DNA of 64,000 nucleotides. It comes from Spirochaetia bacterium (lineage in GTDB: Bacteria > Spirochaetota > Spirochaetia > UBA9216). A model generated the notes under the pieces. The model ran no database searches. It was not told the DNA's origin and saw nothing but the letters and a program-made list of their open reading frames with translations. Position numbers and translations under genes: made by a program. Below are positions 1-23,525 of this stretch, piece by piece; the stretch's first letter is position 1, and each line of letters starts with the position of its first letter. The stretch spans positions 768,001-832,000 of the forward strand of contig OY776510.1 in assembly GCA_963675665.1 (NCBI GenBank), in the 5' to 3' direction.

Positions 1-297
1 TACGGAGTATGGTTGACAAACACCTTATTTGACAGATTAATTTCAACTGAATCAGATGATTTTAAAAATAAATTGAAAAGAAGATGGGAGTCCTTAAGAA
101 GCACTACTTTTTCTGAGAATAATTTAATAAATATATTCCAGAACAATATTAATCTTCTTATAGATTCCGGAGCAGCAGAACGTGACGCAGAAACGTGGCC
201 GGAACTCCAAACCAATCTCTCAGATGAGTTAACATTTATCGAATCATGGATTAGCGCCCATTTGATATATCTAGATAACTATATAAATGAACTTTGA
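1..297 (+). CDS. CotH kinase family protein, C-terminal part (5' end outside window)
   Basis: Frame open from base 1 (YGVWLTNTLFDRL...FKNKLKRRWESLR...AERDAETW...WISAHLIYLD), which resembles CotH-family C-termini. Confidence 0.65.
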   Translation, partial: YGVWLTNTLFDRLISTESDDFKNKLKRRWESLRSTTFSENNLINIFQNNINLLIDSGAAERDAETWPELQTNLSDELTFIESWISAHLIYLDNYINEL

Positions 298-324
298 GGG
301 TCCCGATAAAAGAATATCAAGAAC

Positions 325-2004
325 TCATTGTAACTGAGTAATCAACTCCGTTCTTCGTTGAATCAAATATTGAAGTCTGTCGTCATAATAGTTGGTAAAC
401 TGAATCCAGGAAACCTCATCCTCCACTGAAATATTATGCTGAATATCACATATTTCTTTTCTTTTTAAGAAAAATGATAATTCATATTCTGTATTTTGAA
501 AAACAGCATTTAGATAATCTTCCGTTAAAATATTTTCCAATAAATTCAAAAAAATGCTTTTATATCTATTATATAAAAAGGAGTCCTCTTCAATTGCCTT
601 ATCCAATATCATTTCATTGCAATAAACCAAACTTCCGGGTGTAAAATTTCCCCAATGCGGAGGCAAAAAAAGATCATCATAATCCCATGCTGAAATTAAA
701 AAATATGGTTTATCATTTTCAATAATTCCAGGTAAACCATAAAAAAATATTTCATCTGAATAATCACCGTTCTGAACGAAAGTATTAAATGCTATCCAGC
801 ACATATAACCATCTATATCCATTCTCTTGGAAAGTTCATCATATAATTCAGAACCAGAATAGCTATTTGATAAATCATAAATACTATTATATGTTTCAAT
901 GTAATTTGATAAATCAATTTGTGCTGAATCGTAATAATATTTTAAATCATATTCGGGGTAATATCTTCTTCTTATTACAAACTCAACTTCCGGTTTTTTT
1001 CTTATAATCCCATCCTGAGTTTTTTCAACCAACATGTACATGCCTAAAGACTGATAATTAAACTCAACTTCAAATAATTTAAATGATGGGACAAACAACC
1101 CAAGCTCACTCAAAATTGTAAATGCCATATGATGGTTCAGATACCCGGTATCAGCATCCATAGATATAAGCAAGAAAGAATCTGCATATACATCTGAAAA
1201 CAGATTTGTATAGTCTCCGGATGGCAATCGAATTTCATAACTCTTACGATTGTACCCTAAAGAACTCGCACCATGAAGATTGATTTCAGCATCCTCAAAT
1301 ACATCATCCCTAAACTCAATATTTATTTCATGCTCGGCCGTATAATCATAACCCACAGGATTTGTTAATGATTCAACAGCATCCTGATCAGCAAATATTC
1401 TAATCTGCCTGTTGTCTTCAATTAATACTTTAACTATATAGTTTTTATATTCATTTAATTCATTTATTGTTCGAACATAAACTATATTTTCTCCGATCTC
1501 CAAATCTTGCGTAGGACGTATAATTTTATTCGAAGCACATTGCCATATATTAAATAATGAATTTATCTTATATTCAATCTCCAAATTGGTTTCAGAAAAA
1601 TCTAATATTGGTCGGTTATTGACTGTAACCAACATCAAGTCTCCCAATTCATTTTTTTCTTCATCAAATGTATTTATATTTATATTCTTAATTAATTCTA
1701 ATCCGTTTTTATTATATTTTACTTCAAAATTATAACTGCCATTTGCAGAAACCGGCGTTAAGATCAAATTGCTATCTGAATCCAGATCCTGCCAATCTTC
1801 ACTATTTATACGGAATTGTAAATCATCAGATAAAATAGTATTATCCCATTGATAAATAATTTCCTGTGTAACAGGTGAATAAAATCCAGATATAATCAGT
1901 TCATCGTTATTGTCCAGACTATGTTCTATTTTAAATAAATTACATGAAGAAAATAGTATCAAAATCAGAAGCCATCCAGGTTTTTTAAAATGACAGTATT
2001 TCAT
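325..2004 (-). CDS. CotH kinase family lipoprotein
   Basis: Lipobox LFSSC; CotH motifs HGASS..RKSYEI, GMYMLVEK, NGDY, AWDYD. Confidence 0.85.
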   Translation of the reverse strand: MKYCHFKKPGWLLILILFSSCNLFKIEHSLDNNDELIISGFYSPVTQEIIYQWDNTILSDDLQFRINSEDWQDLDSDSNLILTPVSANGSYNFEVKYNKNGLELIKNININTFDEEKNELGDLMLVTVNNRPILDFSETNLEIEYKINSLFNIWQCASNKIIRPTQDLEIGENIVYVRTINELNEYKNYIVKVLIEDNRQIRIFADQDAVESLTNPVGYDYTAEHEINIEFRDDVFEDAEINLHGASSLGYNRKSYEIRLPSGDYTNLFSDVYADSFLLISMDADTGYLNHHMAFTILSELGLFVPSFKLFEVEFNYQSLGMYMLVEKTQDGIIRKKPEVEFVIRRRYYPEYDLKYYYDSAQIDLSNYIETYNSIYDLSNSYSGSELYDELSKRMDIDGYMCWIAFNTFVQNGDYSDEIFFYGLPGIIENDKPYFLISAWDYDDLFLPPHWGNFTPGSLVYCNEMILDKAIEEDSFLYNRYKSIFLNLLENILTEDYLNAVFQNTEYELSFFLKRKEICDIQHNISVEDEVSWIQFTNYYDDRLQYLIQRRTELITQLQ

Positions 2005-2005
2005 C

Positions 2006-3823
2006 TTAATCGATCAATCCCATACTCAGACCGTCGCTTCCGGCATTATACCCAATACTATCACTTGTTAAACGATATCTGGAATCCATATTCGGTTCAC
2101 CGATAATATTATTTTGAAAAAGCTCATTGTAAGTTGATAGTAATGAATTATTTACACTAATTCTCATAGACGGATTCCAGTTGAATTGATGGAAATCCCA
2201 TATATCTTTTAAATTCTCAATTAATATACTGTTTTCAACAATCAAGCTTCCGCCGGAACCTTCCCAGGAATAATTATCTCCGTGTCGTATCCCGATTTCA
2301 TTTTCCATTATAAGGCAATGATCAATATCAACTCTATGCTCAACATTACTGTAACCCAATTCGATTCCCTGGCCACAATTCCTTATCACAGTATTATATA
2401 TAGTGTGCTGAATAACATCATTATCAGTACTAGTCAGAGCTAAACCCTCATGAAAACATGACTCTATCCAACAATTATTAATTGTTAAGTCGCCCATATT
2501 TCCACTGTCTATTCCATCATCCTTACAATTAATAATAACTGTGTTATTCAGTGTCGCGGTTGCTGATGCTGCAAAGTATAAAGCGTCATTATCGTTATCT
2601 ATATAATTCCTGCTGCTATCTGGAAAATCAAGCAAATAACTATTTTCTATTAACACATCAGAAGCGTTAAACTGACCGGCTGACTGTGCCCTTTGAATAA
2701 GTGAATTTTGAATAGTTACAGATGCTCCTGTTCCTCCAAAAGCCTGTGTTTTTGTATTAATAATATAGGAATTATTCAGTAATATTGTAGATAAATCCTG
2801 AAAAAAGAAAAGAGGCTGTCCCCCGGCGTGACCCCAGCTGTAATCTTTGGAATTCGCTCCACTATTTATAAAAATCGCTCCTGTTGCCGTAAAATCTGTA
2901 GTTGTGTCGCTAAAAATAAATCCGCCCCAATATTCTTCTTTCGAAGCAGAGGTGAAAACAACCGGGTTCGCGATTGTTCCATTAATAATAATATTGCCGT
3001 CACATATGAAATCAGCATTGTTGCTAACTTTTATAATTGTGCCTTCTTCTATTGTCAGAGTTTCCCCCGCAGGTATCTGCACATCACTTAAGATTGAAAT
3101 AAAACTAAATGAATTCCAACTTTGGGTTTCAATGAGACCTGCTTTTTCAATCCAGACAGGATTCTCGGTAAATGTAATTGCTTTCAGGTCGCTTGTTTCT
3201 GAGTCAATACTAACATCAAAAGATCCTACAGAAGTATTATGATCGTATAGAATAACAGAACCTACTCCTCTTTGTATTTCCAGTAATTCTGAGCTAAAAG
3301 AAAAGTCGGCATAATTATAAACAGGAATAATAATACTCGACTCTTTTATATTTACAATAATCGGAAGTGGCAAATTTACCGGATATGATTTAGGAGAAAT
3401 TACTTCGATTAAAGGCGTATTATAATCTGAAATTACCGGTATCGAATAATTTTTCAAATCAGGACAAGATAATCCCCAATCTGCCCATCCTCTCACCGGA
3501 TGTAATATTATAAATTGAACTTTTTCATAGTATTTCTGCCCATTAAGCAGATGTTCATAAAATATTTCCACTTCATAATAACCGGGTAAAGCAACCCGGT
3601 AAGAAGTATCTGGTTCTATGGATTCTCCATTAAGATAAATTTTATATGTATACTCAGCATTTGTATTTATTTTGAATAATACAGGCTCCCAGTATGAAAC
3701 CTTGTTTTCTACACCGGTCAATAGCGGCAAGACTTCTTCTTCATCCAATACTGACGACTGGTCAGAACAAGAATAAGAAAGTAAAATCAAGATAAAACAA
3801 ATTATGTATCTATAACGAAACAC
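2006..3823 (-). CDS. Right-handed parallel beta-helix lipoprotein
   Basis: Lipobox SYSC; LTIEEGT..GT.ANPVVFTS..WGG followed by DNDALY/DDGID/HEGLAL/GQGIELG helix repeats. Confidence 0.75.
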   Translation of the reverse strand: MFRYRYIICFILILLSYSCSDQSSVLDEEEVLPLLTGVENKVSYWEPVLFKINTNAEYTYKIYLNGESIEPDTSYRVALPGYYEVEIFYEHLLNGQKYYEKVQFIILHPVRGWADWGLSCPDLKNYSIPVISDYNTPLIEVISPKSYPVNLPLPIIVNIKESSIIIPVYNYADFSFSSELLEIQRGVGSVILYDHNTSVGSFDVSIDSETSDLKAITFTENPVWIEKAGLIETQSWNSFSFISILSDVQIPAGETLTIEEGTIIKVSNNADFICDGNIIINGTIANPVVFTSASKEEYWGGFIFSDTTTDFTATGAIFINSGANSKDYSWGHAGGQPLFFFQDLSTILLNNSYIINTKTQAFGGTGASVTIQNSLIQRAQSAGQFNASDVLIENSYLLDFPDSSRNYIDNDNDALYFAASATATLNNTVIINCKDDGIDSGNMGDLTINNCWIESCFHEGLALTSTDNDVIQHTIYNTVIRNCGQGIELGYSNVEHRVDIDHCLIMENEIGIRHGDNYSWEGSGGSLIVENSILIENLKDIWDFHQFNWNPSMRISVNNSLLSTYNELFQNNIIGEPNMDSRYRLTSDSIGYNAGSDGLSMGLID

Positions 3824-4811
3824 AAATCTCCCCTGTAAGACTATTTACTATTGTGTTTAGTCTATATTCATAATTATACTGCATTTTTGTAGTTAAAAAC
3901 TTATTTAATTCAAAGGAAACACCTCCTCCGGTATTAATAAATGACTCATCAGATACTTTTGTTACACTATCGTCATAAAACTCAAATGTACAACAAATAG
4001 AAAATTTATTATATCTATATGAGAGTAAAGCCCCTCCGCCCCTCTTCCAATAAAAATAATCGTTCATAACGCTGGCAAAAATCTTCGATTCAAAGTATTC
4101 CAAAAGAAAACTAATGTCTTGAGAGTTATTTATTCCAAAAAAGAAATCTGTATATAATCCATGAGTAAAATTCTGCATTGGGATTTCCTTGAAAAATATG
4201 GAATCATATATATTATATCCAATTTTATACTTTGAATTCTTAAAAACCTTATCTTGAATGAAGATATTACCAACTAAAGAAAATGCTGTTTCGGCGCCAC
4301 CATCCAATAGCTCCTGATTATTAAATATTCCAATTTTATAACCTAATAAATTAAATACTTTCTTGCCATAGATTGAAACCCCAATATCTCGTCCCAGACA
4401 AAACTCATCTGTTATATTATAATGATTAATATATGTTCGCTCGTTATCCCCAAGAGAATATTCCTCGCCGAATGGTGTTTTATATTTTCCAATCTTAATC
4501 GAATGGTTTTTATTAATTTTTTTATCCAGATATATATCTTTTATTTTAAAAAAATAATCTTCATCATTTGACGAATTTGAAAAATCAATTTCGACATTTG
4601 CACTATAGCCGTCCTGAAATTTTAATTCTAATCCGGGTTGAAGTTCGCCCAGATGGAATTTTCCAAAGCCGTCGGAATCATAATACGAATATACTCCCGC
4701 CATATCAAATTTAAATTCCAATTCAAACTCTTCACTCTTATAAAAATTAATATCGGCAAAAAGAATATGACTGCAATTGATAATAAGCAGAATAAATATA
4801 AGTTTTCTCAA
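3810..4811 (-). CDS. Outer-membrane porin, phosphate-selective OprO/OprP-like family
   Basis: Signal peptide; KDIY, KIGKYKTPFGEE and GRDIGV..G motifs; amphipathic beta-strand pattern. Confidence 0.65.
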   Translation of the reverse strand: MRKLIFILLIINCSHILFADINFYKSEEFELEFKFDMAGVYSYYDSDGFGKFHLGELQPGLELKFQDGYSANVEIDFSNSSNDEDYFFKIKDIYLDKKINKNHSIKIGKYKTPFGEEYSLGDNERTYINHYNITDEFCLGRDIGVSIYGKKVFNLLGYKIGIFNNQELLDGGAETAFSLVGNIFIQDKVFKNSKYKIGYNIYDSIFFKEIPMQNFTHGLYTDFFFGINNSQDISFLLEYFESKIFASVMNDYFYWKRGGGALLSYRYNKFSICCTFEFYDDSVTKVSDESFINTGGGVSFELNKFLTTKMQYNYEYRLNTIVNSLTGEICVSL

Positions 4812-5314
4812 GACTCATTACTCCTTCCCATCGTATGCTCCTCAAAATATTTATATATTCCGCCTCCATCTATTTCCAATCCATATGATCCGTTATAGGT
4901 ATCAGGTATATCATCAATACGATCTATTACATAATCTTTGCCACTATCTGTGTATATTAATATTATTGATTCTCCCATTTTTAATTTAAAATCAGTGCTT
5001 CCATTTTCTTCTTTTCCATCACAGATGACAACTTCAAAAGATTTTCCGGGAATTATGCTTCCTGAAGGGAATGTCCATTTTTCTCCGAGCAGATCATCAT
5101 TTAAAGATATCCTTGAAAGGTCAATTGCTGTTTCTGAGGAGTTATACAACTCTATCCAGTCATCCTCATCTGTGTTATTATTCGAATATTCATTTATAAA
5201 TAGTACTTTCTGAGATTGTAAGAATGAAAATTCTTTTTCCTCATAAAAAAAGGAACATCCTGATATAATAAAAACAAAAAATAATAGACTGTATTTTTTC
5301 AGATAAAACTCCAT
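4808..5314 (-). CDS. Lamin tail domain lipoprotein
   Basis: Lipobox ISGC; INE...DWIELYN...IDLS...W.FP.G.I.PG; ends in a TMG..N motif. Confidence 0.85.
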   Translation of the reverse strand: MEFYLKKYSLLFFVFIISGCSFFYEEKEFSFLQSQKVLFINEYSNNNTDEDDWIELYNSSETAIDLSRISLNDDLLGEKWTFPSGSIIPGKSFEVVICDGKEENGSTDFKLKMGESIILIYTDSGKDYVIDRIDDIPDTYNGSYGLEIDGGGIYKYFEEHTMGRSNES

Positions 5315-5322
5315 TTTATTTA

Positions 5323-5958
5323 TTATAGCTCCTCCTCCGGAATATAAAAAATTCTTATCTTTGCCGTGTCCTGAAGAAAATCGATTTGATTAATCTCAAC
5401 TCTCGAAATTTCAAGTCCGGTTCGCGCAGATAGATCAGCGATTAATTCATCACGTCTTTCCGGAACAATGAGTTCAATTTTTTCATATAATATTATTTTT
5501 GTATAAATATTATTGAAAATTTTATGTTCAAGAAAAGCTGTAGAGGCAATGATAGTAATATTTGCAAGAAGCAATTCAGTATGACTGACGCTTTTATTTG
5601 ATAATGCATTAATCACACCAACACCAATAATAATAAACATATACGTCATTTCTTTTATTGCAATTTGAGAAGTACGATACCTTAATATCCCGAAAATCGC
5701 AAATAACCCTACCGCGAAACCCATTTCAACATCTACACTTTCAAGAAGAAAACATAATAAAAAGACAACTGTGCTTAAGAGGAAGAAAGTGAAAACATAA
5801 TTCTTATGTTTTTGTAATTCTACTCGCTGTCTTTTTTTTCTATAATAAATTGAGCAAATTATGAAAGTTACGATTAAATGAAATACTAATCTGACAATCA
5901 GTTCGAAAAAATCATCAGGATTAATTATTTTAATCCCTAAAAACCTGAGATTATCCAA
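5323..5958 (-). CDS. DUF4956 family membrane protein
   Basis: Several TM helices; GFAVGLFAIFGILRYRT..I..KEMTY.F signature. Confidence 0.85.
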   Translation of the reverse strand: MDNLRFLGIKIINPDDFFELIVRLVFHLIVTFIICSIYYRKKRQRVELQKHKNYVFTFFLLSTVVFLLCFLLESVDVEMGFAVGLFAIFGILRYRTSQIAIKEMTYMFIIIGVGVINALSNKSVSHTELLLANITIIASTAFLEHKIFNNIYTKIILYEKIELIVPERRDELIADLSARTGLEISRVEINQIDFLQDTAKIRIFYIPEEEL

Positions 5959-6724
5959 AAATTTCCTCCATTCCCTGAATTAATTTTATAATTTGTCTGT
6001 TTCGTTTTTTAAACCTGTTAGATTTTAAAAATGATGAATTTAGTATATTCTGTCCTAAACAATATTTACTTATCTTAAAAGGAAATATTCCTTCACTTTT
6101 CATATAGCGATAAAAATCGGTTTTTTGTCCTTTTGATTTAACTTCAATAACAGCCAAATTATTCAATTTAACTTTATTCCCTTTCATATGATAAGCAAGG
6201 TTATAATCAATTGTAACTCTTTCGTTAGAGTCGAAGTTTACTAAAGTAAACCGACTAAACTCAATATTAAACTGTTTTTCCAAATCTTCCGGCAGATATG
6301 GTGTTTTTTCCGTAATGAATTTCTCAATTATTTCAGAATTATCATTCGCAGAATTTAATTCTAACCTCTTCTTATCTACTCTTCCCACATTAGATTTAAA
6401 TTTTGATTCAATGAAACAGAGATCTGAATCCAGATACCTTCTTATACGAATTTTATACCTGTTCAATTTTTTATTATGATGTTTCAGATACATTTCACAA
6501 TCAGAAGTATCATAGTAAGTTGTAGAGTATCTAAAAACTCTTTTTTCATCAATTTCCAGTATTCTATATTGATTAATAAATCTTTTTAGCAGTTTTGGTA
6601 ATTTATCTTGACTAATTATAAATTTAGTATCAAATCTTTTCAGCAGAACTGCTGATTCTATTTCAATTAATGAAACAGGAGTAAAATCATTAAGAAATGA
6701 AATTTCATCACTGAGCAATTCCAT
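5951..6724 (-). CDS. VTC-domain (polyphosphate polymerase, CYTH/TTM fold) protein
   Basis: KRFDTKF, YSTTYYDT, RYKIRIRRY, FIESK.K, RVTID.NL, VIEVK, SKYC motifs. Confidence 0.85.
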   Translation of the reverse strand: MELLSDEISFLNDFTPVSLIEIESAVLLKRFDTKFIISQDKLPKLLKRFINQYRILEIDEKRVFRYSTTYYDTSDCEMYLKHHNKKLNRYKIRIRRYLDSDLCFIESKFKSNVGRVDKKRLELNSANDNSEIIEKFITEKTPYLPEDLEKQFNIEFSRFTLVNFDSNERVTIDYNLAYHMKGNKVKLNNLAVIEVKSKGQKTDFYRYMKSEGIFPFKISKYCLGQNILNSSFLKSNRFKKRNRQIIKLIQGMEEIFG

Positions 6725-6749: not shown

Positions 6750-7421
6750 TCATTTTTTTATTTCTGCAGCAACACTGTATACAGATTCAAAAATTTCCTG
6801 AGTTTCAGGTTTTGTAAATATTTTCATAATTGTATCCTGAAGCGGTATGGGATTATCAAACTGGGTTTCAGCATAACAGCGAATATAGGTGCGTGGAGCT
6901 CCATCGACAGATTCAAGGCTCTGCAGATACCAGAAACCTTCATATTCCTTAAAGTTACCTTCCTCGCAGTCTATCAGGCGCCAGTTCATTACAAACTCAG
7001 TTGAGGTGAACTTTACAACATTTACTATAGTTGTATAGATGTAATCCTGACCTATTCCCAGAAATTTCGCACTGGTATGTATTTTTTGGCGATGAGGAAC
7101 AGTTAAAGGATCTTCCGGATTAAGATCAACAGTATCAATCATTCTTTTAAACACTTTTTCACCGTTATCATGATCGGAAATTATCTCTGCGAGAGTTTTT
7201 AACTTAATATCGAAGACTGCATGAAAATCGGAGACTGCATGTATGCGTTTCTCGCCATCTTCACTTAATCGATTTATCCTAAGTGTAATTTCTTTTGCCT
7301 TCTTTCCTAATGAAGAAATATCTGCTCCAGGCGCTATTGAGTATTGTGAATTTAACGAGTACAAATTCACTGTAGTTAGTAATGTTAAGAAAAAAAGAAT
7401 TATTCTACATAAAAGTTTCAT
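6750..7421 (-). CDS. Exported hypothetical protein, possibly START/SRPBCC fold
   Basis: Signal peptide; W.L....GNFK.YEGFWYL pattern. Confidence 0.5.
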   Translation of the reverse strand: MKLLCRIILFFLTLLTTVNLYSLNSQYSIAPGADISSLGKKAKEITLRINRLSEDGEKRIHAVSDFHAVFDIKLKTLAEIISDHDNGEKVFKRMIDTVDLNPEDPLTVPHRQKIHTSAKFLGIGQDYIYTTIVNVVKFTSTEFVMNWRLIDCEEGNFKEYEGFWYLQSLESVDGAPRTYIRCYAETQFDNPIPLQDTIMKIFTKPETQEIFESVYSVAAEIKK

Positions 7422-9036
7422 TGCTTATTGTCATCTTTACTGATATTACTGCCTGAAAATCATTGAATACTGATTCGGGTTCATGATTAAAATTATTTAT
7501 GTTTATATATGCAAGATTTACACTTGCGCATAAAAACGGGAAGATTTCATAAGTGCCGTACAGACCTATAACAAGTTTGTATTCTGGAATACCTGTAGGT
7601 GTTTTTAATCCTGCAGCTTCCGCAGTTTCTTCATATTCAGTTGCAATTGTATTCCCGCCTTTTAGAATATAATCAGCCGTTAGTGCTGCTTTAATCATTC
7701 CAGGAATCGTATAACCTGCTTCAGAAGAAAATGCTATTGTATCAGGTCCATATTTATAACCTATAGGCTTATAGATGTTGACCCTTTTGTTAAGAATGTC
7801 CGATGATTCCCGATGAGACCATACCATACCGGCTTCAGGAATTTCCAGTAAATAACACCACGGGCTGGTGTATAAATATTCAAAATAAGCCGAGATATAA
7901 CCGGGACCAACAGGTAGTGAAAAATCTATTCCAAGCAAGTGCGCATCAGCATTCGGCGTGACGTTGACTTCACTTCCGTATTCGGCCTGTTCCAGTCCTG
8001 TACTTATTTCATCAAGCAGGTATTCTCCATAGAACTCTATACCGGACAGAGGAACAATACTGAACCCGGCAGTCATACAAATATTTGCCACGCTTATGTT
8101 TCCGTCTTCATCGGTAATCGGATGATTTCTGAATAGATTGTGGTATACAATTAAAGGATTAATAAACTGCAATTCAGTAGATTCACCGTAGAATAATGAA
8201 GATTCATTAACAGAAAGTGTAAATTTATCAAAAAATCGTGCTTCCAGCGCATGATCTACTTGATACCGCTGAGCCGGATCATAATCGGTCCAGCTTTCGA
8301 AATTCAGATATGTCCAGGTATAAGCAAAATTATCTGTATATCCCCGGATCTTAAAAAAATCATAATAGTCCGGATACGAAGACAGAAGCAGTTTTCCGTT
8401 TTTTCCATTGCCATATTCAAACTGATCTCTGCCTAATTGAATATTCCAGTTGCTGCCGCCGAATGAAAAAAAACCGCGATCCGGAAAATGGTAATTAAGA
8501 TCTCCAAACGAAACGGGCAGATTTGTATAATTTCCTTTATATTCTCCATCATCATCAGTATCAGTAATTATAAATCTGCTTTCTTCAAAATCGGGTTCCA
8601 TAACTGCATAGAACCCTTTGTTAAACCAGGTTTCTGCGGTAACTGTTAAAAAAGGCCGGCGATCTTCATAAGCATAATACCATTGTGTTTCATCATCGGA
8701 ACTATGAAGATAAGACTCAATAGAAGCTGCTATTGAAACATCCATTAAAAATCCATTTTCTTGATATATTCCGGAGTGTTCCAATAACTTCTCAAGCCGT
8801 TTCATCGCAATCTTGCCAGGTTGCGACAACTGTCCTTCGTCTATCTGTTCGATAATATTTTTTATTTGCGCCTCGGAAAAAGGCTTGACAGCCGATAGAG
8901 AACTGACCCCTGCTTCAGCTTCCAGAAGACTCATCAGGCTGTATATCTCAGAATCAATAGGAACAATTTTTTGATCGTTTGGGAAAAGTGAAAAAGGAAT
9001 TATTAATAATAAAAAAACAACCAGGAACTTATTCAT
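7405..9036 (-). CDS. Wzi-like (capsule assembly) outer membrane protein
   Basis: Signal peptide; QLGRD..YG.G..G.LLLS, INPL..YHN, EY.YT.P..Y, PIGY.YGPD. Confidence 0.7.
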   Translation of the reverse strand: MNKFLVVFLLLIIPFSLFPNDQKIVPIDSEIYSLMSLLEAEAGVSSLSAVKPFSEAQIKNIIEQIDEGQLSQPGKIAMKRLEKLLEHSGIYQENGFLMDVSIAASIESYLHSSDDETQWYYAYEDRRPFLTVTAETWFNKGFYAVMEPDFEESRFIITDTDDDGEYKGNYTNLPVSFGDLNYHFPDRGFFSFGGSNWNIQLGRDQFEYGNGKNGKLLLSSYPDYYDFFKIRGYTDNFAYTWTYLNFESWTDYDPAQRYQVDHALEARFFDKFTLSVNESSLFYGESTELQFINPLIVYHNLFRNHPITDEDGNISVANICMTAGFSIVPLSGIEFYGEYLLDEISTGLEQAEYGSEVNVTPNADAHLLGIDFSLPVGPGYISAYFEYLYTSPWCYLLEIPEAGMVWSHRESSDILNKRVNIYKPIGYKYGPDTIAFSSEAGYTIPGMIKAALTADYILKGGNTIATEYEETAEAAGLKTPTGIPEYKLVIGLYGTYEIFPFLCASVNLAYININNFNHEPESVFNDFQAVISVKMTISNETFM

Positions 9037-9042
9037 AATCTT

Positions 9043-10437
9043 TTATATCGAATAGATTACTCCCAGGGAAATTGAAAAGATACCCTTATTATATTCAGAC
9101 GGGACCCAATATTGTATCATATTTACATCACTTTGTAATTCGACAGGCACATCAGTAAGCTCGAGAACATTCCAGATATAGCCTACTTCCAGGGCAGCGC
9201 TTATTTTCAGATCCGAAAGATCTATCTCCGGAAGACCGCGGGACACCCCGGCCGTCAACACCAGTTTTTTCTCCAGTACATCTGCATCGAGAAACTTCGT
9301 ACCTGCATCCGGTACCTGTGTCCACAATTCGTATTCCGACCATGGATTTGCAGGAGATTTGCTGCCTGATAAAGAGAACTCAACAGAAGTATATAATCCG
9401 ATATCAAACCACTCAGCAGTATAATCAGCCATAATTGTGAAATTATTCTCTCCGTTGTAGTACCCGATATAGTTATCCTCTAATTCAATAGGCATTATTA
9501 CGCCATTAGCATAATATGTTGCCTCCGGATAAAAACTGTAACCGTATTTATAATCAATTGAACTTCCGCCGGATGATTGAAAGGTATATTTTGTTGCACC
9601 TGCATGATACAGACCGACAATGCCGAAATTAAAATTATACCGGCATCCTGCCGACCATGCAATTTTATTCGGATTTTGAGAACTTTCCGGATTGAATATT
9701 GCATTGGCATTAAAATCATCTACTAAAACCTGGCCATATGCATAGAACCTTTCCGGCTCCCATTCAAGAAATAATCCCATAATTGAATTATCATTTCCGT
9801 CTACCTGCCAGGGTTTTCCGACAGAGACCCTTGTATACTGTTTGAAAAATCCAGGCAAAGGGTTTAAAAAATATTCGATATCAAAACTTCGTTCTGTATA
9901 GATCAAGGAATCCTGAAAGCCGAATTTGAAATCGCCAATATAAATTCCATAACTGTTATATTGCCATCCTCTTTCAGGAAAACCAAGAGCCGAATCACGA
10001 TTGAGCTCAGTCCATCGTGAAGTATAGAAGAAATTTCTATCATCATAACTGATATCAGCTAATAAAGCCGGGATAATTTTTGAGGAAACAAACAGACTAT
10101 ATGGCGAATCAATAGTATCATTTAAAGTCGTTCTTCCGAGTGTCACCGCCAGATCTTTCCATGTAAACTCAAAGCCTCCGTCCTCAAGAAAGAAGTAATA
10201 GCCAAAAAACAAGTCGTCACCATGCGAAGGCTGATATTTATTATCATTACAGACTGAAAGACTCCAGAAAAAATCTATATACTCATTGGTATGTCCAATG
10301 TCGAGAACACCGTACTGATAGAAGCTTTTTACGGAATTCAAATCATAAACAAAATCCGCTCCAGCTGAAACATCAAATGCGAATACATTTATTACAAAAC
10401 CTGTTATATAAAAAATTATAAAAATCAACTTTTTCAT
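9043..10437 (-). CDS. Second Wzi-like outer membrane beta-barrel protein
   Basis: Signal peptide; YFLNPLP, DNSIMG, YGQVLVDD, YIGYY.G; adjacent paralog-like gene. Confidence 0.55.
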   Translation of the reverse strand: MKKLIFIIFYITGFVINVFAFDVSAGADFVYDLNSVKSFYQYGVLDIGHTNEYIDFFWSLSVCNDNKYQPSHGDDLFFGYYFFLEDGGFEFTWKDLAVTLGRTTLNDTIDSPYSLFVSSKIIPALLADISYDDRNFFYTSRWTELNRDSALGFPERGWQYNSYGIYIGDFKFGFQDSLIYTERSFDIEYFLNPLPGFFKQYTRVSVGKPWQVDGNDNSIMGLFLEWEPERFYAYGQVLVDDFNANAIFNPESSQNPNKIAWSAGCRYNFNFGIVGLYHAGATKYTFQSSGGSSIDYKYGYSFYPEATYYANGVIMPIELEDNYIGYYNGENNFTIMADYTAEWFDIGLYTSVEFSLSGSKSPANPWSEYELWTQVPDAGTKFLDADVLEKKLVLTAGVSRGLPEIDLSDLKISAALEVGYIWNVLELTDVPVELQSDVNMIQYWVPSEYNKGIFSISLGVIYSI

Positions 10438-11573
10438 TTTATTCTCTTTTTCCAGGAAATTATCGTTCCCTTCCAGTTAATAGTTCTTGTCAGTACGGCG
10501 ATAAAAAAACTTTGAACATAGATAAATGGATATAATAAAACGGATACAAACAAGCCCTTCCAATATCGTGTATTGACAGGACCTGTAAAACCAAGCAATA
10601 TCGAAGATAAAAATAAAAAGCCATACATAACCGACGGAAAAATAAAGAAAACCGGATTTAAAATTCCCAAAGGTATGCTTAACAAACAAAATGCTGTGAT
10701 AATCATTAATGCTATGAAACTCGTTTGGGCAAATCTGTTCTCTGAAAAAACAGCTCCCGCCGCCCAACGAACAGCTTGATTTGTATGTTCATTCCAGGTC
10801 CTTTTATGAACCGTTTCGATAAATGAATCGTCATTAAATAGAGCTCTGATTTTGTACTTTCCGGCAGTATTCACTTTTGAGATCAATTCTGCATCTTCTG
10901 TTGCTGAATGAAGAAGGCATTCATAACCTCCTACTGATAAATATGTTTCTTTTCTGATTGCAAGGTTATTTCCAAAGCAGCCTATAGGCTTGCCCAGACC
11001 AATCGCACCAAACGCAAACAACATCCTGAAAAAATGATCAAAATTCTGAAATCTGCAGAGGACATTGTTCTCACCCGTAAGAGTCAGCATCCCACAGACA
11101 ACTCCGGTTGAAAGATTGGAAAAAGCTTCTACCAATAACTCTGCCCAACACTCTCCCGCTTCACAATCAGCATCTGTAAATACAAAAAGTTCTCCTTCTG
11201 CCTGTTCAATTCCCTTAAGTAATACATTCACCTTGGGATTAAAAGCTCCCGGCGACTCAGTATTTGCAATAACTTTAATCTTCAGATTCGAAGCAGTATG
11301 AAAATTATTCATCAGCTTTAAACTTTGATCTTCGGATCTGTCGTCGATCAGAATAATTTCCAGGTTTTTATAACTTTGGTTTTCCAGAGATGTAAATAAC
11401 CTGGGCAGGTTTTCCGCTTCATTTCGGGCCGGTATAATGATTGATATAAAAGGCTGATAATCCTTATTAATGCCGTTTATATTAGCTCGTTTCTTTTCCA
11501 ACGACAAACCCAGTGCGACAAAAAAAGTAAGGACAATAAGTACTGCTGATATTAATAATATAAATATATGCAT
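10434..11573 (-). CDS. Membrane-bound GT2 glycosyltransferase
   Basis: SIIIPARNE, DDRSED, FTDADC, TED, QAVRW; N- and C-terminal TM helices. Confidence 0.85.
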   Translation of the reverse strand: MHIFILLISAVLIVLTFFVALGLSLEKKRANINGINKDYQPFISIIIPARNEAENLPRLFTSLENQSYKNLEIILIDDRSEDQSLKLMNNFHTASNLKIKVIANTESPGAFNPKVNVLLKGIEQAEGELFVFTDADCEAGECWAELLVEAFSNLSTGVVCGMLTLTGENNVLCRFQNFDHFFRMLFAFGAIGLGKPIGCFGNNLAIRKETYLSVGGYECLLHSATEDAELISKVNTAGKYKIRALFNDDSFIETVHKRTWNEHTNQAVRWAAGAVFSENRFAQTSFIALMIITAFCLLSIPLGILNPVFFIFPSVMYGFLFLSSILLGFTGPVNTRYWKGLFVSVLLYPFIYVQSFFIAVLTRTINWKGTIISWKKRIK

Positions 11574-11595
11574 CTATCTCTTAAAAATAAAACAA

Positions 11596-12666
11596 CTATC
11601 TATTGTTATAATTTCTTTCCATCCACTTCAGATATTCACCGGATTTTACCTGCTCAATCCAGTCCCGGTTTTTAAGATACCATCTTACCGTTTCCCGAAG
11701 ACCGGAATCAAATGTATATGACTGCTTCCACCCAAGCTCTCTCTTAAGCCGTTCGCAGTTGATGGCGTATCGTCTGTCGTGTCCCGGACGATCTTTTACA
11801 AAATTAATCAGCTTCCTGTAGTATTCGCTGTTTTTACCATTTTCATCTGCCATTATCTCGCAAAGACGGTTAACAAGTTTGATATTTTCCCATTCGTTCT
11901 CACCGCCAATGTTATATGAACGTCCTGCCTCTCCGCTGTTAACAATTATCCAGACAGCGGAGTTGTGATCTTCCACATAAAGCCAGTCTCGGATATTTTT
12001 TCCGTCACCATATATTGGCAACGGTTTTTCTTCAAGCATATTCTCTATCATTACCGGTATCAGTTTCTCCGGAAACTGATACGGACCGTAATTATTTGAA
12101 CAGTTTGAAAGGGTTATTGGTAGCCCGTATGTATGAAAATATGCTCTTACAAGATGATCGGAAGCCGACTTCGCAGCAGAATACGGACTACGCGGATCAT
12201 AAGGGGTTTCTTCTGAAAAAGATCCTTCATCTCCAAGACTTCCGTAGACCTCGTCTGTTGATACGTGATGAAAGAGTTTTCCTTCATAATTATTCCAGAA
12301 TCCACGCACAGCTTCAAGAAGTGTAAATGTCCCATTTATATTAGTTGTTATAAATTCTTCCGGACCGGTTATCGAACGGTCTACGTGACTTTCAGCAGCA
12401 AGATGTATTACCGTATCAATATCGTATTTTATGAGAATATTATCAACAGCCTCGCGATCCCTGATATCCGCCTTCTCGAAAAAATAACGCTTCCCGCCGT
12501 ATTCTTTATCAATATCATTAAGGCTATAAGGATTGCCTGCATAAGTCAGGACATCGAGATTTATAATATTCCCGTTAAATCCGGTTTTTTCAAACAGATA
12601 TCTGACAAAGTTTGATCCGATAAATCCGGAGCCGCCTGTTATAAGGATATTGCTCAGTTTTCTCAT
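11596..12666 (-). CDS. rfbB: dTDP-glucose 4,6-dehydratase
   Basis: TGGSGFIG, HLAAESHVDRS, HVSTDEVYG, PYSAAK, DRPGHDRRY. Confidence 0.95.
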   Translation of the reverse strand: MRKLSNILITGGSGFIGSNFVRYLFEKTGFNGNIINLDVLTYAGNPYSLNDIDKEYGGKRYFFEKADIRDREAVDNILIKYDIDTVIHLAAESHVDRSITGPEEFITTNINGTFTLLEAVRGFWNNYEGKLFHHVSTDEVYGSLGDEGSFSEETPYDPRSPYSAAKSASDHLVRAYFHTYGLPITLSNCSNNYGPYQFPEKLIPVMIENMLEEKPLPIYGDGKNIRDWLYVEDHNSAVWIIVNSGEAGRSYNIGGENEWENIKLVNRLCEIMADENGKNSEYYRKLINFVKDRPGHDRRYAINCERLKRELGWKQSYTFDSGLRETVRWYLKNRDWIEQVKSGEYLKWMERNYNNR

Positions 12667-13892
12667 TTAGTTGAGACTCCTTGTATATTTTTTAATACAT
12701 TTTCCATTTGCTCTATTCTTAGTTCTTTCCTGAATACCCGTTCATAATATCTCTTCCCATTAATTCCCTTAATCTTCAATTCATCTTTATTCATTTTTAA
12801 AAAAGAGTTAATGCCTCTTTCTGTTTCTTTAATATTGCCGGCAGGGACCGCTATCCCACAGTCAGCATCTTTTATCAGATCAGCACCATCACCGTTTAAC
12901 ATTGCAAGAACAGGTTTACCCTGAGACATATAGAATTGGACCTTGGCAGGAACAGTCATATTAAAAATCTTTTCATCTTTTAAAGAAACAACAAGGACAT
13001 CGGCAATAGACATTAACTCCGGCATTGCTTCCAATGGAAACCTTCCCGGGAAAAAACAAGTCTCTTCCAGCCTTAAGGAAACAACCATCTCTTGAAGATG
13101 TCTTTTTTTTCTTCCGTCTCCAAGAAATACAAATTTAATATTTTGTCTGTCTTTAAATTTCATTGCAGCCGTTAAGAGACAATCAAGATTCTGTGCTTCT
13201 CCGATATTTCCTGCAAACATAAAAATAAAATCATTGTCATTTTTAGGAAACGGCTCTTTAGAAAAATTTTTAATGGGTTTAATATCCTCTGCCCAATTGG
13301 GAAAATACTCAATTTTTGACTCAAAATTACCTTTTTCACAAATGGACTTTTTAAATCCTTTTGAACCGACAAGGATTCGGTCACAGTGTGAATAAACCTT
13401 TTGAACCATTTTTTCCAAAGGATACAAAATTGCTTTTGATTTAATATTACCTGCCGATACGACAGACTCCGGCCATAAATCAAGTACCCAGAATATTAAT
13501 GGAATACTCTTTTTTTTCTTCAACCACACAGCAGGTAAACCAAGAAAGAACGGAGATGTCATATGAACAAGAACTGCATCATAATCCTTTTTTATAGAAT
13601 GAAATCTTATGTAAAAAGAAAGAGATACAAGATATGAAAAATAATTTAAGCCCAATTTTATTTTATTCCCTTTACCTCTGGGAATTCTTGGTATCCGAAC
13701 TATATTAACGCCATTTATAACTTCTCTATTCTTTTTAAATAGAGAATAACCATCATAATATTTTCCGTAAGGATAATCCGGAATAGCTGTCAGCACTGTT
13801 ATCTCATTTTCTTTTACGGCTAATTCAAAAGCAATATCGTTTATCTTGAAATCTTCCGGATAAAAATGATTTGTTATAATACAAATCTTCAC
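12663..13892 (-). CDS. GT4 glycosyltransferase, WbuB-like (probable L-FucNAc transferase)
   Basis: HFYPE, PDYPYG, DLWPES, PNWAE, AGNIGEAQ; GTG start at 13892 overlapping upstream stop; next to fnlABC. Confidence 0.85.
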   Translation of the reverse strand: MKICIITNHFYPEDFKINDIAFELAVKENEITVLTAIPDYPYGKYYDGYSLFKKNREVINGVNIVRIPRIPRGKGNKIKLGLNYFSYLVSLSFYIRFHSIKKDYDAVLVHMTSPFFLGLPAVWLKKKKSIPLIFWVLDLWPESVVSAGNIKSKAILYPLEKMVQKVYSHCDRILVGSKGFKKSICEKGNFESKIEYFPNWAEDIKPIKNFSKEPFPKNDNDFIFMFAGNIGEAQNLDCLLTAAMKFKDRQNIKFVFLGDGRKKRHLQEMVVSLRLEETCFFPGRFPLEAMPELMSIADVLVVSLKDEKIFNMTVPAKVQFYMSQGKPVLAMLNGDGADLIKDADCGIAVPAGNIKETERGINSFLKMNKDELKIKGINGKRYYERVFRKELRIEQMENVLKNIQGVSTK

Positions 13893-15025
13893 TAATACAA
13901 TCCCCAAACAACTCTTTTAATATAATCAGTATAACTGAGGATTATTCTCACTACTTTATCAGAGACATTCGGCATCGAATAATCTGATACTTTTCTATAG
14001 ACAGTTTTCGCTGTATTATCCTGTTCCAGAAGTTTTAAGCCCTGAAGAATTCGTTCAGGATTTAAACCTACCATCATTACAGAGGCTTCTTCCATGGCTT
14101 CCGGTCTTTCATGTGCTTCCCTGATATTTAATGCAGGAAAACCAAGAATCGACGACTCTTCAGATATAGTACCGCTATCGGATAAAACAGCGAAAGAATT
14201 CAACTGTAAGGCTATATAATCACTTAAACAGAAGGGTTTCTCAAGCCTGATTTTTTTATTGAACACAACATTTTTCTGTTCAATCATTTTACGGGTTCTT
14301 GGGTGTGTAGAAACGATAACTGGGAGATTGAACATATCTGCTATTTCATTCAAAACACTGCATATCCCATTAAAGTTCTTTTCGGAAGCAATATTTTCTT
14401 CTCTATGTGCGGAAACAACAAAATATTGCCCTTTTTCTAACTTAAGCTTTTCCAAAATCCTAGACTTTTTCACCTTCGGCATATACTCAGAAAGAACTTC
14501 AAACATGGGGCTTCCTGTTTTTATCACCCGGTCAGCACGTAGCCCTTCAGCAAGCAGGTATTCCCTGGCAATATCGCTATAAGTCAGGTTTATATCACTT
14601 ATATGATCCACAATCTTTCTGTTTGTTTCTTCAGGTACACGTTGATCAAAACAACGGTTTCCTGCTTCCATATGAAAAATTGGGATATGCCTTTTTTTTG
14701 CTGCTATTGCACATAAACAAGAATTTGTGTCGCCAAGAACCAGAAACGAGTCAGGTTCAACCTCAGAAAGGACTTTGTCTATTTTAACAAGAATATTCCC
14801 TGCCGTTTCAGTCGCATTACTGCCGGCCGCCTCCAGAAAATAATCCGGTTTCCTCAAGCCAAGATCATCGAAAAAAATCTGGTTCAACTCATAATCATAA
14901 TTTTGCCCTGTATGAACAAGAACATGTTCAACGGCAGAACAACTGTCTAGCTTTTTTAGTACACATGAAAGCCTTATTATTTCCGGTCTTGTTCCGACAA
15001 CAGTTAAAACCTTAAGCTTGTTCAT
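13892..15025 (-). CDS. fnlC: UDP-sugar 2-epimerase of the L-FucNAc pathway (FnlC/WbjD/CapG)
   Basis: VGTRPEIIRLS, HTGQNYD, HMEAGNRCFD, SDSGTISEE, ERPEAM. Confidence 0.9.
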   Translation of the reverse strand: MNKLKVLTVVGTRPEIIRLSCVLKKLDSCSAVEHVLVHTGQNYDYELNQIFFDDLGLRKPDYFLEAAGSNATETAGNILVKIDKVLSEVEPDSFLVLGDTNSCLCAIAAKKRHIPIFHMEAGNRCFDQRVPEETNRKIVDHISDINLTYSDIAREYLLAEGLRADRVIKTGSPMFEVLSEYMPKVKKSRILEKLKLEKGQYFVVSAHREENIASEKNFNGICSVLNEIADMFNLPVIVSTHPRTRKMIEQKNVVFNKKIRLEKPFCLSDYIALQLNSFAVLSDSGTISEESSILGFPALNIREAHERPEAMEEASVMMVGLNPERILQGLKLLEQDNTAKTVYRKVSDYSMPNVSDKVVRIILSYTDYIKRVVWGLY

Positions 15026-16137
15026 TCAACATCCTCATAATATGTATCCGGCTTTTCTTTATCAAAATACTCATTAGCCCACACAACCAGAATCATGTCA
15101 TTATCCCCGATATTGGTTATTTTATGCGTATATCCGGGAGGGATATCTACAACTTCCAGTTTTTTATCAGATACATTATATTCAATTATTTCATCATCCA
15201 GGATATTTCTAAATACAATTTTTGCTCTTCCTTTGATTACCAAAAATTTTTCGTTCTTTGTATCATGAAAATGATTTCCCCTGGTTATCCCCGGTCTTGA
15301 AGTTGAGATTGAAAATTGTCCGCTGCTTAAAGTTTTCACAATCTCAATAAAACTGCCCCGTTCATCTTCATGGGCCTTTAACGGATATGAAAAATCATCT
15401 TTAGATAAAAACGACAGATAAGTTGAATACAAAGCCCTGGCGAAGCCTATTCCGACATTATCTATCGTTAGCGAATTTCTCGATTCCTTGAATGAATATA
15501 ATAAATCTCTTACTTCACCTAATGTTACATCATAAATACAATCTACATTATAAAATGTTTTAAAATGTCTGATTTTTTCTTCTGTTAGATGTTTTACAAA
15601 ACAATTAACAACATCATCTATATAGACAAGAGAAATCTTCTTTCTCGGATCGTCAATCGATATATCTATATTATGAGTGATATTATATGCCCAGGTTGCT
15701 ATTACTGTATTATAGTTTGGTTTACTCCATTTACCAAAAACACCGGGCAATCTATATATATATACTGCTACGAAGTTTTTTATGCTATATTCTTCGATAA
15801 TTTTCTCAGCGGCTAATTTACTCCGGCCATATTCATTATTTAATTCAGCCTGAGTGGAGGATGTTATTAAAATCGGTATTTTTAGACCTTTATTTTCTAT
15901 TGCTCTAACAATACTTTGTGTTAAGTCGACATTATTCTTTTTGAAATCAGAATCATTTTTCGGTCTGTTTTCACCGGCAAGATGATAGATAAATGAAACG
16001 CCATCGAGAAGAGAATCCAACTCTTCTATTTTATTTTTTTTATCAAATTCAATAATCTCAAGTCCCGATTTTCTTTTTAACGTTTGTTTTAAATTCTTCC
16101 CGATAAAACCACTAGAACCTGTTATTAATATTTTCAT
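15022..16137 (-). CDS. fnlB: Bifunctional SDR-cupin reductase/epimerase (FnlB/WbjC/CapF)
   Basis: TGSSGFIG, HLAGENRP, VFGKWSKPNYN, C-terminal cupin TRGNHFH.TK.EKF. Confidence 0.9.
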   Translation of the reverse strand: MKILITGSSGFIGKNLKQTLKRKSGLEIIEFDKKNKIEELDSLLDGVSFIYHLAGENRPKNDSDFKKNNVDLTQSIVRAIENKGLKIPILITSSTQAELNNEYGRSKLAAEKIIEEYSIKNFVAVYIYRLPGVFGKWSKPNYNTVIATWAYNITHNIDISIDDPRKKISLVYIDDVVNCFVKHLTEEKIRHFKTFYNVDCIYDVTLGEVRDLLYSFKESRNSLTIDNVGIGFARALYSTYLSFLSKDDFSYPLKAHEDERGSFIEIVKTLSSGQFSISTSRPGITRGNHFHDTKNEKFLVIKGRAKIVFRNILDDEIIEYNVSDKKLEVVDIPPGYTHKITNIGDNDMILVVWANEYFDKEKPDTYYEDVE

Positions 16138-16151
16138 TTCTAATCCTTTTC

Positions 16152-17147: not shown

Positions 17148-17150
17148 AAC

Positions 17151-18296: not shown

Positions 18297-18320
18297 TTGC
18301 TCTTTCCCCTGTCGCTTTAA

Positions 18321-20063: not shown

Positions 20064-20082
20064 CCAAGGACTTAAAATTGAT

Positions 20083-20421
20083 CTAAAAATTATAGATTAA
20101 AATGCCGCATACTATTACTGACAATCCAAAAATTCTTATCCTGTTAATTTTTTCTTTTAAAATTACCCTTGAGAATACAACTACAAAAATATAATTCATT
20201 GGAAGCAAGAGGATCATCACTTTTAACGGCAGGATTCTATATGCAAAAAGGTTAATTAATGTTACCGATACAAGAATAGCATACCCGGAAATAGTCCAGA
20301 TGTTGAATAAGGATCTTATTAGTGAATGCCTTATCTTTTTTTTTGCACCAATTTTAAGAGATATTTGACTTAAGGCTGTCATCAATACACCGACAAATGC
20401 AAGAATTTTATAATAAATCAT
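20083..20421 (-). CDS. SMR/EamA small membrane protein (ArnE/F-like flippase subunit)
   Basis: 112 aa, 4 TM, QISLKIG and ILKEKI. Confidence 0.7.
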   Translation of the reverse strand: MIYYKILAFVGVLMTALSQISLKIGAKKKIRHSLIRSLFNIWTISGYAILVSVTLINLFAYRILPLKVMILLLPMNYIFVVVFSRVILKEKINRIRIFGLSVIVCGILIYNF

Positions 20422-22368: not shown

Positions 22369-22375
22369 TAATATC

Positions 22376-23518: not shown

Positions 23519-23525
23519 GTTCTCC

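Follow-up and report, generated by a model that had tools for sequence, protein, structure and literature searches.

A gene cluster encoding VTC, DUF4956, porin and CotH proteins in a spirochaete, and its possible role in supplying polyphosphate to exported kinases

A 64,000-nucleotide stretch of the genome of a Spirochaetia bacterium (assembly GCA_963675665.1, contig OY776510.1, positions 768,001 to 832,000 of the forward strand; hereafter the window) begins with a cluster of six genes that encode a VTC-domain protein, a DUF4956 membrane protein, an LTD protein, a Porin_O_P porin, a right-handed beta-helix protein and a CotH-family protein. The linkage of these gene families is far beyond chance, and the distribution of three of them is nested: VTC occurs within DUF4956, and DUF4956 within CotH. 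This pattern makes DUF4956, and not VTC, the constant partner of CotH, a result that is new with respect both to the published record and to a preliminary description of the window made from its sequence. Tentatively, and with somewhat less than even confidence, we propose that the system makes polyphosphate (polyP) and passes it into the cell envelope, where it would serve exported CotH kinases acting on surface glycan. The cluster and its immediate neighbours are as follows, with lengths in amino acids (aa).

5951..6724, minus strand: VTC-domain protein, 257 aa (Pfam VTC, E 4.7e-26)
5323..5958, minus strand: predicted DUF4956 inner-membrane protein, 211 aa (Pfam DUF4956, E 5.1e-46)
4808..5314, minus strand: small predicted LTD lipoprotein, 168 aa (Pfam LTD, E 5.9e-13)
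3810..4811, minus strand: Porin_O_P porin, 333 aa (Pfam, E 9.8e-08)
2006..3823, minus strand: predicted right-handed beta-helix lipoprotein, an accessory of the locus, 605 aa (Pfam Beta_helix, E 2.3e-10, residues 405-535)
325..2004, minus strand: CotH1, predicted CotH-family lipoprotein, 559 aa (Pfam CotH, E 6.8e-25)
1..297, plus strand: CotH2, 3' end of a convergent gene (fragment, Pfam CotH, E 1.4e-09)
6750..47492, minus strand: low-GC surface-glycan biosynthesis locus that reaches the cluster (Pfam scan and GC content)

The list of open reading frames (ORFs) and the Pfam scan define six contiguous minus-strand genes that span 325-6724. All six products pass the curated Pfam cut-offs, and the family content given in the preliminary description (VTC, DUF4956, LTD, OprO/P-like porin, beta-helix, CotH) is thereby confirmed with hidden Markov models (HMMs). 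The junctions VTC/DUF4956/LTD/porin/beta-helix/CotH1 measure -8, +8, -4, -14 and +1 nucleotides (nt). The earlier claim that overlaps and gaps are of 8 bp or less holds for four of these junctions and fails for the one between porin and beta-helix, whose 14-nt overlap depends on the choice of start and assumes the GTG start of the longest ORF for the beta-helix gene. The VTC gene lies 25 nt from the next gene upstream, a short distance that the preliminary description does not mention. Promoter-like sites were fewer than in shuffled sequences, and terminator scans found none at the cluster borders; neither scan marks out an operon. As judged by eye from the translations, the LTD, beta-helix, CotH1 and CotH2 proteins begin with a hydrophobic stretch that ends in Cys, like lipoproteins (the LTD N-terminus ends ...IISGC, read as a lipobox); the porin start resembles a signal peptide and the VTC start does not. 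Family matches and N-termini together agree with the compartments proposed earlier, namely a cytoplasmic VTC protein, a membrane protein, a porin and three lipoproteins. A second CotH gene does converge on the cluster: the plus-strand frame that ends at 297 belongs to a gene of 587 aa with its start upstream of the window (L003:14534; Pfam CotH, E 1.8e-44), and 27 nt separate the stop codons of CotH1 and CotH2. NCBIfam gave no name to any of the six proteins, except for a sub-threshold ExtI match of the porin. The beta-helix protein had no sequence match in PDB or NCBIfam and no relative in the other loci examined (phmmer), and no relatives of the LTD protein were found in those loci either.

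Related loci were collected from one genome per species. An 8-sequence VTC alignment gave 600 pattern matches, 553 of which were confirmed as VTC relatives, and the locus counts refer to the best 80 of these 553, nearly all of them from Bacteroidota. DUF4956 stands directly after VTC and on the same strand in 80/80 loci, at gaps of -86 to +99 nt; a survey of gene neighbourhoods, suggested in the preliminary description as a check, thus finds the linkage conserved elsewhere. For 23 of these loci, 129 neighbouring gene products were scanned with Pfam, and further counts were made with HMMs built from these matches. In Bacteroidota a recurrent module combines large CotH proteins (one, two or three of them), two smaller proteins of about 133 aa (with weak CarboxypepD_reg-type matches in some cases) and about 170 aa, VTC, DUF4956 and an outer-membrane barrel of the DUF2490 family. 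Three loci without a nearby CotH gene come from genomes that hold CotH elsewhere (1, 14 and 5 matches); one Methanoperedens genome gave no CotH match. Within Spirochaetota, a genome of another class (G003) carries VTC, DUF4956, CotH and porin genes in this order on one strand.

Matches to the three families were also counted per genome in two phyla.

Spirochaetota, 201 genomes including that of the window: VTC in 9, DUF4956 in 23, CotH in 25; VTC with DUF4956 9/9; VTC with CotH 8/9; DUF4956 with CotH 22/23; CotH without DUF4956 3/178
Bacteroidota, 151 genomes: VTC in 27, DUF4956 in 48, CotH in 57; VTC with DUF4956 27/27; VTC with CotH 27/27; DUF4956 with CotH 45/48; CotH without DUF4956 12/103

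The single spirochaete exception without CotH is the same in both comparisons, a 71%-complete genome (G169). At the level of genera, 16 of the 105 in Spirochaetota have CotH, 15 have DUF4956 and 14 have both. In 13 of the 22 Spirochaetota genomes that hold both families, DUF4956 lies within 5 kb of CotH, as read from the coordinates; in the genus g15 the two occur together in 5/5 genomes on different contigs. All 27 Bacteroidota genomes with VTC have a VTC match within 1 kb of a DUF4956 match. Among 14 control genomes, VTC and DUF4956 occur in the same three (B. thetaiotaomicron, C. glutamicum and M. acetivorans), and CotH occurs in those three and in B. subtilis, which has neither VTC nor DUF4956. 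Co-occurrence is given as counts and not as a test because related genomes are not independent. On the linkage and co-occurrence counts chance adjacency was rejected, and the preliminary statement that the families are known to co-occur is borne out in both phyla and in the controls.

A few of the loci have features of their own. Two genomes of the genus g80 have the chemotaxis genes cheR and cheD immediately upstream of DUF4956 and on its strand (L096:10530-11882, L103:6017-7350). G063 has, in sequence, DUF4956, a gene with weak likeness to HlyD, a 427-aa gene without a family, and VTC. A locus labelled Gammaproteobacteria (L044, genome G204) has two type IX secretion components, PorV and a C25 peptidase, beside VTC-DUF4956, with 14 CotH matches in the genome, and a locus labelled Heimdallarchaeota (L035) has a Bacteroidota-like VTC. 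The taxonomic labels of these two contigs, both from metagenome-assembled genomes, look doubtful.

The VTC protein of the window scores 92.2 bits against PF09359 (cut-off 23), with the domain at residues 29-227. A profile of 25 homologues matches the yeast proteins Vtc2 (3g3o, E 1.2e-4) and Vtc4 (3g3q, E 5.9e-4); none of the homologues found exceeds 47% identity to the protein of the window. The active site of Vtc4 is listed as K200, R264, R266, K281, Y359, R361, E426, S457 and K458 in a cryo-EM preprint (bioRxiv 10.1101/2023.01.27.525886), which also names K458 as the sole key residue replaced in the inactive Vtc2 and Vtc3. In another cryo-EM paper, R264A/R266A/E426N is an inactive Vtc4 mutant. 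Residues were mapped through HMM alignments to 3g3q and 3g3o rather than by superposition, with chain numbering verified by counting. K34 corresponds to K200, R93 to R264, R95 to R266, K108 to K281, E194 to E426, S219 to S457 and K220 to K458; R158 corresponds to R361, as deduced from the Y-x-R motif in the Vtc2 alignment. Eight of the nine active-site residues are therefore kept, the K458 equivalent included, and all eight are invariant in 61/61 homologues. On this basis the protein is a candidate cytoplasmic polyP polymerase. It shares with the eukaryotic VTC complex the catalytic family, the eight triphosphate- and metal-binding residues, and the pairing of the enzyme with a membrane protein, here encoded next to it. 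Unlike the eukaryotic enzyme, it is a free catalytic domain of 257 aa without an SPX domain (Pfam) and with Phe at the Y359 position, and its proposed target is the periplasm or surface instead of a vacuole.

The host is a spirochaete: MurA, encoded 9 kb upstream, shares 92% identity with proteins named from Spirochaetales metagenome-assembled genomes and 77% with Sediminispirochaeta. A profile search of the whole genome, a single contig of 5.15 Mb, placed every match at this locus: a single VTC gene, a single DUF4956 gene and two CotH genes. PPK1 and PPK2 genes are present elsewhere in the genome, and the VTC enzyme is therefore regarded as extra and specialised. Ppx-GppA had no match in the genome.

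DUF4956 (PF16316) is matched with 156.9 bits over profile positions 3-169 of 169. The AlphaFold model (predicted local distance difference test, pLDDT, 87.6) has five helices followed by a C-terminal beta-alpha-beta-beta domain. By the positive-inside rule, we read the N-terminus as outside, and both the conserved loop R93-Y-R95...K102-E103 and the C-terminal domain as cytoplasmic. Foldseek gave no match at E <= 0.001 for the model; the best VIA match, an archaeal virus protein at Z 8.6, falls within the stated noise range for helical models; the profile found nothing in PDB below E 0.35, and the Atlas had no usable match. The fold searches gave no likeness to nucleotide transporters, and the Foldseek and VIA lists held no VTC entry, which leaves room for a remote likeness. 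The C-terminal domain has weak ACT-like Foldseek rows, to the regulatory domain of aspartokinase. DUF202, the three-helix domain of the Vtc1 type, had 0 matches in the genome among 21 candidates scored. The preliminary description had read VTC plus DUF4956 as a split version of the VTC synthase/translocase. The catalytic half of that idea fits the eight of nine Vtc4 residues kept, but the membrane half is not Vtc1-like, with neither DUF202 nor a VTC fold match, and the partner here, of five helices and an alpha/beta domain, differs from the three-helix Vtc1/DUF202. The membrane half of a 'split VTC' is thus an analogy and not a homology, because no solved structure resembles DUF4956 convincingly.

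There may be two subtypes of DUF4956, a high-scoring one linked to VTC and a low-scoring one; a split in E-values among the matches agrees with this. Four DUF4956 genes without VTC (L096:11900-12565, L100:6184-6891, L101:5963-6661 and L102:5483-6295) match the membrane part of the profile only and have weak MgtC matches. The MgtC family itself combines a five-helix membrane domain with a C-terminal ACT-like cytoplasmic domain.

Both CotH proteins are well above the PF08757 cut-off of 23.8 bits (CotH1 88.7 bits, CotH2 153 bits). CotH2 matches B. cereus CotH (5jd9, E 3.6e-5), with the D...N and WDMD motifs aligned. The kinase domain of CotH1 (residues 241-547) is divergent and has no PDB match by sequence; it keeps an Asp aligned to the catalytic Asp and a WDYD motif. 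Over 118 residues round the active site, CotH1 and CotH2 are about 25% identical. The catalytic residues of CotH are given as D228 and D251 for the B. subtilis enzyme (PMC7821199), and this numbering was equated with the B. cereus 5jd9 chain by inference. The likeness to the B. subtilis and B. cereus proteins (5jd9, 5jda) lies in the Pfam family and, for CotH2, in the aligned catalytic Asp, loop Asn and WDxD. The window's CotH proteins, in contrast, carry about 200 additional aa at the N-terminus, resemble lipoproteins and are predicted to leave the cytoplasm, in a host that does not sporulate. B. subtilis CotH, from a genome without VTC and DUF4956, acts inside the mother cell, and this control speaks for the proposal.

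In other loci, carbohydrate-type domains (CHB_HEX_C, Cthe_2159, CBM26 and a weak CBM_48) occur on or beside CotH. Among the Bacteroidota CotH proteins scanned, 11 of 16 have a fused LTD and a type IX secretion tail. Proteins with such tails are expected at the surface and therefore away from the inner-membrane protein, and this location favours a diffusible link over direct contact between the proteins.

The porin scores 32.1 bits against Porin_O_P (PF07396; cut-off 20.9), with the match confined to the N-terminal third of the profile. Among the aligned members of its subfamily, 26 of 29 match Porin_O_P, and a subfamily profile matches OprO (E 0.002) and OprP (E 0.03). The model (pLDDT 90.2) is a 16-strand porin. 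By E-value, Foldseek places chitoporin (E 2e-11) and general porins first and OprP/OprO at ranks 5-7 (E 3e-9); the highest template-modelling (TM) scores, 0.72-0.73, are those of OprP/OprO. The window's porin thus shares family and 16-strand fold with the phosphate- and diphosphate-selective porins OprP and OprO of Pseudomonas (2o4v, 4rjw) but is about 80-95 aa shorter, with only the N-terminal third matching by sequence. The subfamily is rare: homologues amount to only 23 cluster representatives of 1.84 billion at E <= 1e-10, and full-length members occur in 2 of the 201 Spirochaetota genomes, that of the window and G003, both within the cluster. A metagenome search with a four-sequence porin alignment gave only 3 weak partial loci and carries no information on this point. 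The other 18 Spirochaetota porin matches cover only the first ~160 model positions, in frames of 247-503 aa. This short Porin_O_P subfamily in two spirochaete-phylum genomes is also new with respect to print and to the preliminary description. G003 carries a second CotH-DUF4956-VTC set (G003:C7:576059-578960; L094, L095), whose VTC match is in two pieces with stops (1 TGA, 3 TAA) and which looks like a decaying duplicate.

An outer-membrane barrel recurs beside DUF4956 or CotH, and we count this in favour of the proposed route. Among the related loci, the place directly after DUF4956 is taken by DUF2490 in 44 of the 71 with enough sequence. These barrels are smaller (about 230 aa) and of a different Pfam family from the window's porin, although hhalign gives a weak relation to its subfamily (probability 69%, E 4.4e-5). 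In the spirochaete-phylum genome G056, where no VTC lies near DUF4956 and CotH, an OEP/TolC-like gene stands on the strand of CotH, 0.7 kb from it.

The glycan context is also counted in favour. From 6750 to about 47492, some 40 kb, all genes lie on the strand of the cluster and belong to a surface-glycan synthesis locus. Its Pfam matches include GT1, GT2 and GT4 transferases, epimerases and dehydratases of sugars, DegT aminotransferases, NeuB, an ABC exporter, two cytidylyltransferases and, weakly, a Wzi-like protein. The guanine-plus-cytosine (GC) content is 30.9% in the six-gene cluster, 31.7% in the glycan locus and 32.5% in CotH2, compared with 44.8-44.9% in both flanks. The sequence from L003:14534 to position 47492 of the window is one low-GC island of about 49 kb with the cluster at its 3' end, and this embedding, too, is new with respect to print and to the preliminary description. 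Such a composition suggests that the island was acquired horizontally, or else that it has the low GC typical of loci for surface glycans. No Pel-named family was found among the 38 upstream gene products scanned with Pfam.

The glycan locus holds several other genes. A set on the minus strand (37318-38454, 41389-42072, 44626-45315 and 45316-47492) comprises NeuB, two CTP_transf_3 proteins, a DegT aminotransferase and a Polysacc_synt_2 dehydratase, which suggests synthesis of a nonulosonic acid of sialic, pseudaminic or legionaminic type. A 762-aa protein (38351-40639, minus strand) has only weak ATP-grasp (ATPgrasp_ST) and radical-SAM matches, an odd pairing in a glycan locus, and a full-length DUF6044 protein (E 4.5e-153) is encoded at 18321-20063 (minus strand). 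Three minus-strand genes, at 6750-7421, 9043-10437 and L003:13705-14316, encode proteins of 223, 464 and 203 aa without a Pfam or NCBIfam family; the 223-aa protein has a signal-peptide-like start, and its gene lies between the Wzi-like gene and VTC. An Alk_phosphatase gene (48193-49266, minus strand; E 1.3e-70) lies a short way outside the island on its upstream side, where the sequence already has the 45% GC of the backbone.

In the proposed mechanism, the cytoplasmic VTC enzyme would polymerise polyP from ATP, like Vtc4, and would hand the chain to the adjacent inner-membrane DUF4956 protein. DUF4956 would pass polyP, or phosphoryl groups derived from it, to the periplasm, and the dedicated porin could let polyP reach the cell surface. 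The lipid-anchored CotH kinases would draw on polyP, by a direct or an indirect path, and phosphorylate a glycan or a protein of the cell surface, with the LTD and beta-helix lipoproteins as putative binding or processing accessories. The target of CotH would most likely be the product of the adjoining glycan locus. The polymerase activity, the transport by DUF4956, the passage through the porin, and the donor and substrate of CotH are all steps that we infer.

Several observations weigh against this mechanism. VTC is unmatched in 14 of the 23 Spirochaetota and 21 of the 48 Bacteroidota genomes with DUF4956, and no substitute enzyme was seen beside the six VTC-less DUF4956-CotH loci inspected in spirochaete-phylum genomes. 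PolyP made by VTC therefore cannot be what joins DUF4956 to CotH in general, and the earlier idea that it is the phosphoryl donor of CotH falls as a general rule. In the 30 loci flanked by 8 kb or more on each side, a CotH gene stands within 8 kb of VTC only 11 times. At the position of Vtc4 Y359 the window's enzyme has F156, and its homologues have Phe in 52/61 and Tyr in 9/61; in yeast, Y359F reduces polyP content, according to the Vtc4 preprint (bioRxiv 10.1101/2023.01.27.525886). No protein in which VTC is fused to a membrane protein was seen among the longer proteins, which is weak evidence. For DUF4956, Foldseek, VIA and the PDB profile search detected no likeness to Vtc1 or to solved channels, and five DUF4956 proteins from other spirochaete-phylum genomes have sub-cut-off MgtC matches (E 8e-4 to 6e-3); the window's DUF4956 has no MgtC match in Pfam. 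MgtC is not known as a channel.

Two further points of this kind concern the outer membrane and the kinases. The pore of OprP has an arginine ladder that gives phosphate selectivity. In the 29-member alignment of the window's porin subfamily, the columns conserved at 70% or more include 4 basic and 8 acidic ones, and the porin itself is net acidic (33 K+R versus 44 D+E). With more conserved acidic than basic columns, phosphate selectivity is without support from conservation; the earlier label of an OprO/P-like porin is sound for family and fold by sequence and model. The basic residues of DUF2490 were considered as a path for polyP and dropped, since a preprint reports that its conserved charges form a buried network and do not line the pore. 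CotH1 is without the catalytic-loop Asn and has Ile or Glu at the aligned position. The sole characterised CotH, that of B. subtilis, uses ATP (PMC7821199).

That DUF4956 and CotH are the tighter pair, with VTC in only 9/23 and 27/48 of the DUF4956 genomes, speaks for an arrangement in which DUF4956 provides the exported CotH kinases with a supply that is not polyP, such as ATP or a different nucleotide, or else ties them to the membrane, and in which VTC is an optional regulator, or a tri- or polyphosphatase, acting on the cytoplasmic, ACT-like domain of DUF4956. The weak ACT-like (aspartokinase) and MgtC matches fit this arrangement, as does the Phe at the Y359 position; the triphosphate tunnel superfamily also includes triphosphatases and cyclases. 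The ATP use of B. subtilis CotH points the same way. We nevertheless consider it unlikely: VTC keeps the equivalent of K458, the residue that divides active Vtc4 from inactive Vtc2 and Vtc3, it is always found beside DUF4956 (36/36 genomes; 80/80 of the best 80 loci), and DUF4956 has no nucleotide-transporter likeness. The conserved VTC residues and the linkage apply equally to a scheme in which polyP itself is the product. It would leave through the porin and, at the surface or outside the cell, bind cations, contribute to biofilm or give protection, with CotH and LTD proteins that bind, cap or anchor it to glycan. The cluster does lie within a surface-polymer island, and the PPK-independent extracellular polyP of the B. 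cereus group, reported in a 2026 preprint, shows that polyP can be released by unknown routes, though that group has no VTC4 homologue. Such a scheme is improbable in our view: it leaves unexplained why DUF4956 tracks CotH so closely even without VTC, the CotH proteins retain kinase-type catalytic residues, and the porin family is not basic-lined.

It is also conceivable that no kinase is involved. CotH, LTD and beta-helix proteins would then be adhesins or proteins that bind or process glycan, VTC and DUF4956 would serve phosphate or magnesium homeostasis, and the two groups would travel together only by way of a mobile glycan island. The whole block is of low GC, the catalytic loop of CotH1 is atypical, the other loci examined hold no relatives of the LTD or beta-helix protein, and fungal CotH proteins act as invasins. 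Against this stand the nested co-occurrence in two phyla and in controls of two further phyla, unlinked genes included (5/5 in g15), and the catalytic Asp and WDxD kept in both CotH1 and CotH2; we regard this explanation as very improbable. The proposed supply of polyP to exported CotH kinases could also be one case of something wider, in which DUF4956 is a general inner-membrane conduit of a phosphoryl donor to exported CotH kinases in bacteria and archaea, the donor being polyP where VTC docks and cytoplasmic polyP or a nucleotide elsewhere. We offer this extension as speculative and rather doubtful.

The triad of cotH, a polyP polymerase and DUF4956 is already in print without a function: two papers name the three as accessory genes of Gram-positive pel loci and give them no function (bioRxiv 10.1101/768473; 10.1101/2024.04.20.589940). 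For S. intermedius, the authors of the pel preprint suggested that polyP stays cytoplasmic. The same set forms part of NELoc-2 of C. perfringens, and an expression table of B. thetaiotaomicron places the DUF4956 protein BT3498 beside the DUF2490 protein BT3499. The window's cluster resembles the Gram-positive set: in both, the three families lie beside genes for a polysaccharide, CotH is a predicted exported protein, and the polymerase is predicted to stay in the cytoplasm. It differs in that its host is diderm, that it adds a porin and the LTD and beta-helix lipoproteins, that it is without DUF4832, and that it is not contiguous with pelDEADAFG, its neighbours being a different glycan locus. 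The 2026 preprint on the Bacillus cereus group describes extracellular polyP that is independent of PPK1 and PPK2, resistant to exopolyphosphatase and of unknown source, and states that B. cereus has no VTC4 homologue. The literature search, which did not extend to supplements, found five papers that name DUF4956, none that has it together with VTC, and nothing on the function of a bacterial VTC. The earlier remark that the system is without a functional description therefore holds as far as these sources go.

Bacteria commonly export kinases of the CotH/Fam20 type, yet no supply of ATP beyond the cytoplasm is known. The module is a concrete candidate for two puzzles, the donor for exported kinases and the source of extracellular polyP, and the nested pattern brings DUF4956, more than VTC, to the fore as the main partner of exported CotH. 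Even if the proposed mechanism is false, the module is still among the more widespread conserved gene sets of unknown function. If it is true, it would be a new route for the supply of energy and phosphate to the cell envelope and possibly a new modification of surface glycans, with a bearing on biofilm (through the pel loci) and on gut Bacteroides. If DUF4956 acts as a conduit, the phosphorylation of surface glycans or proteins fuelled by polyP would be an unrecognised process in many prokaryotes, to which diderms such as this spirochaete would add a barrel, a porin or a TolC-type duct.

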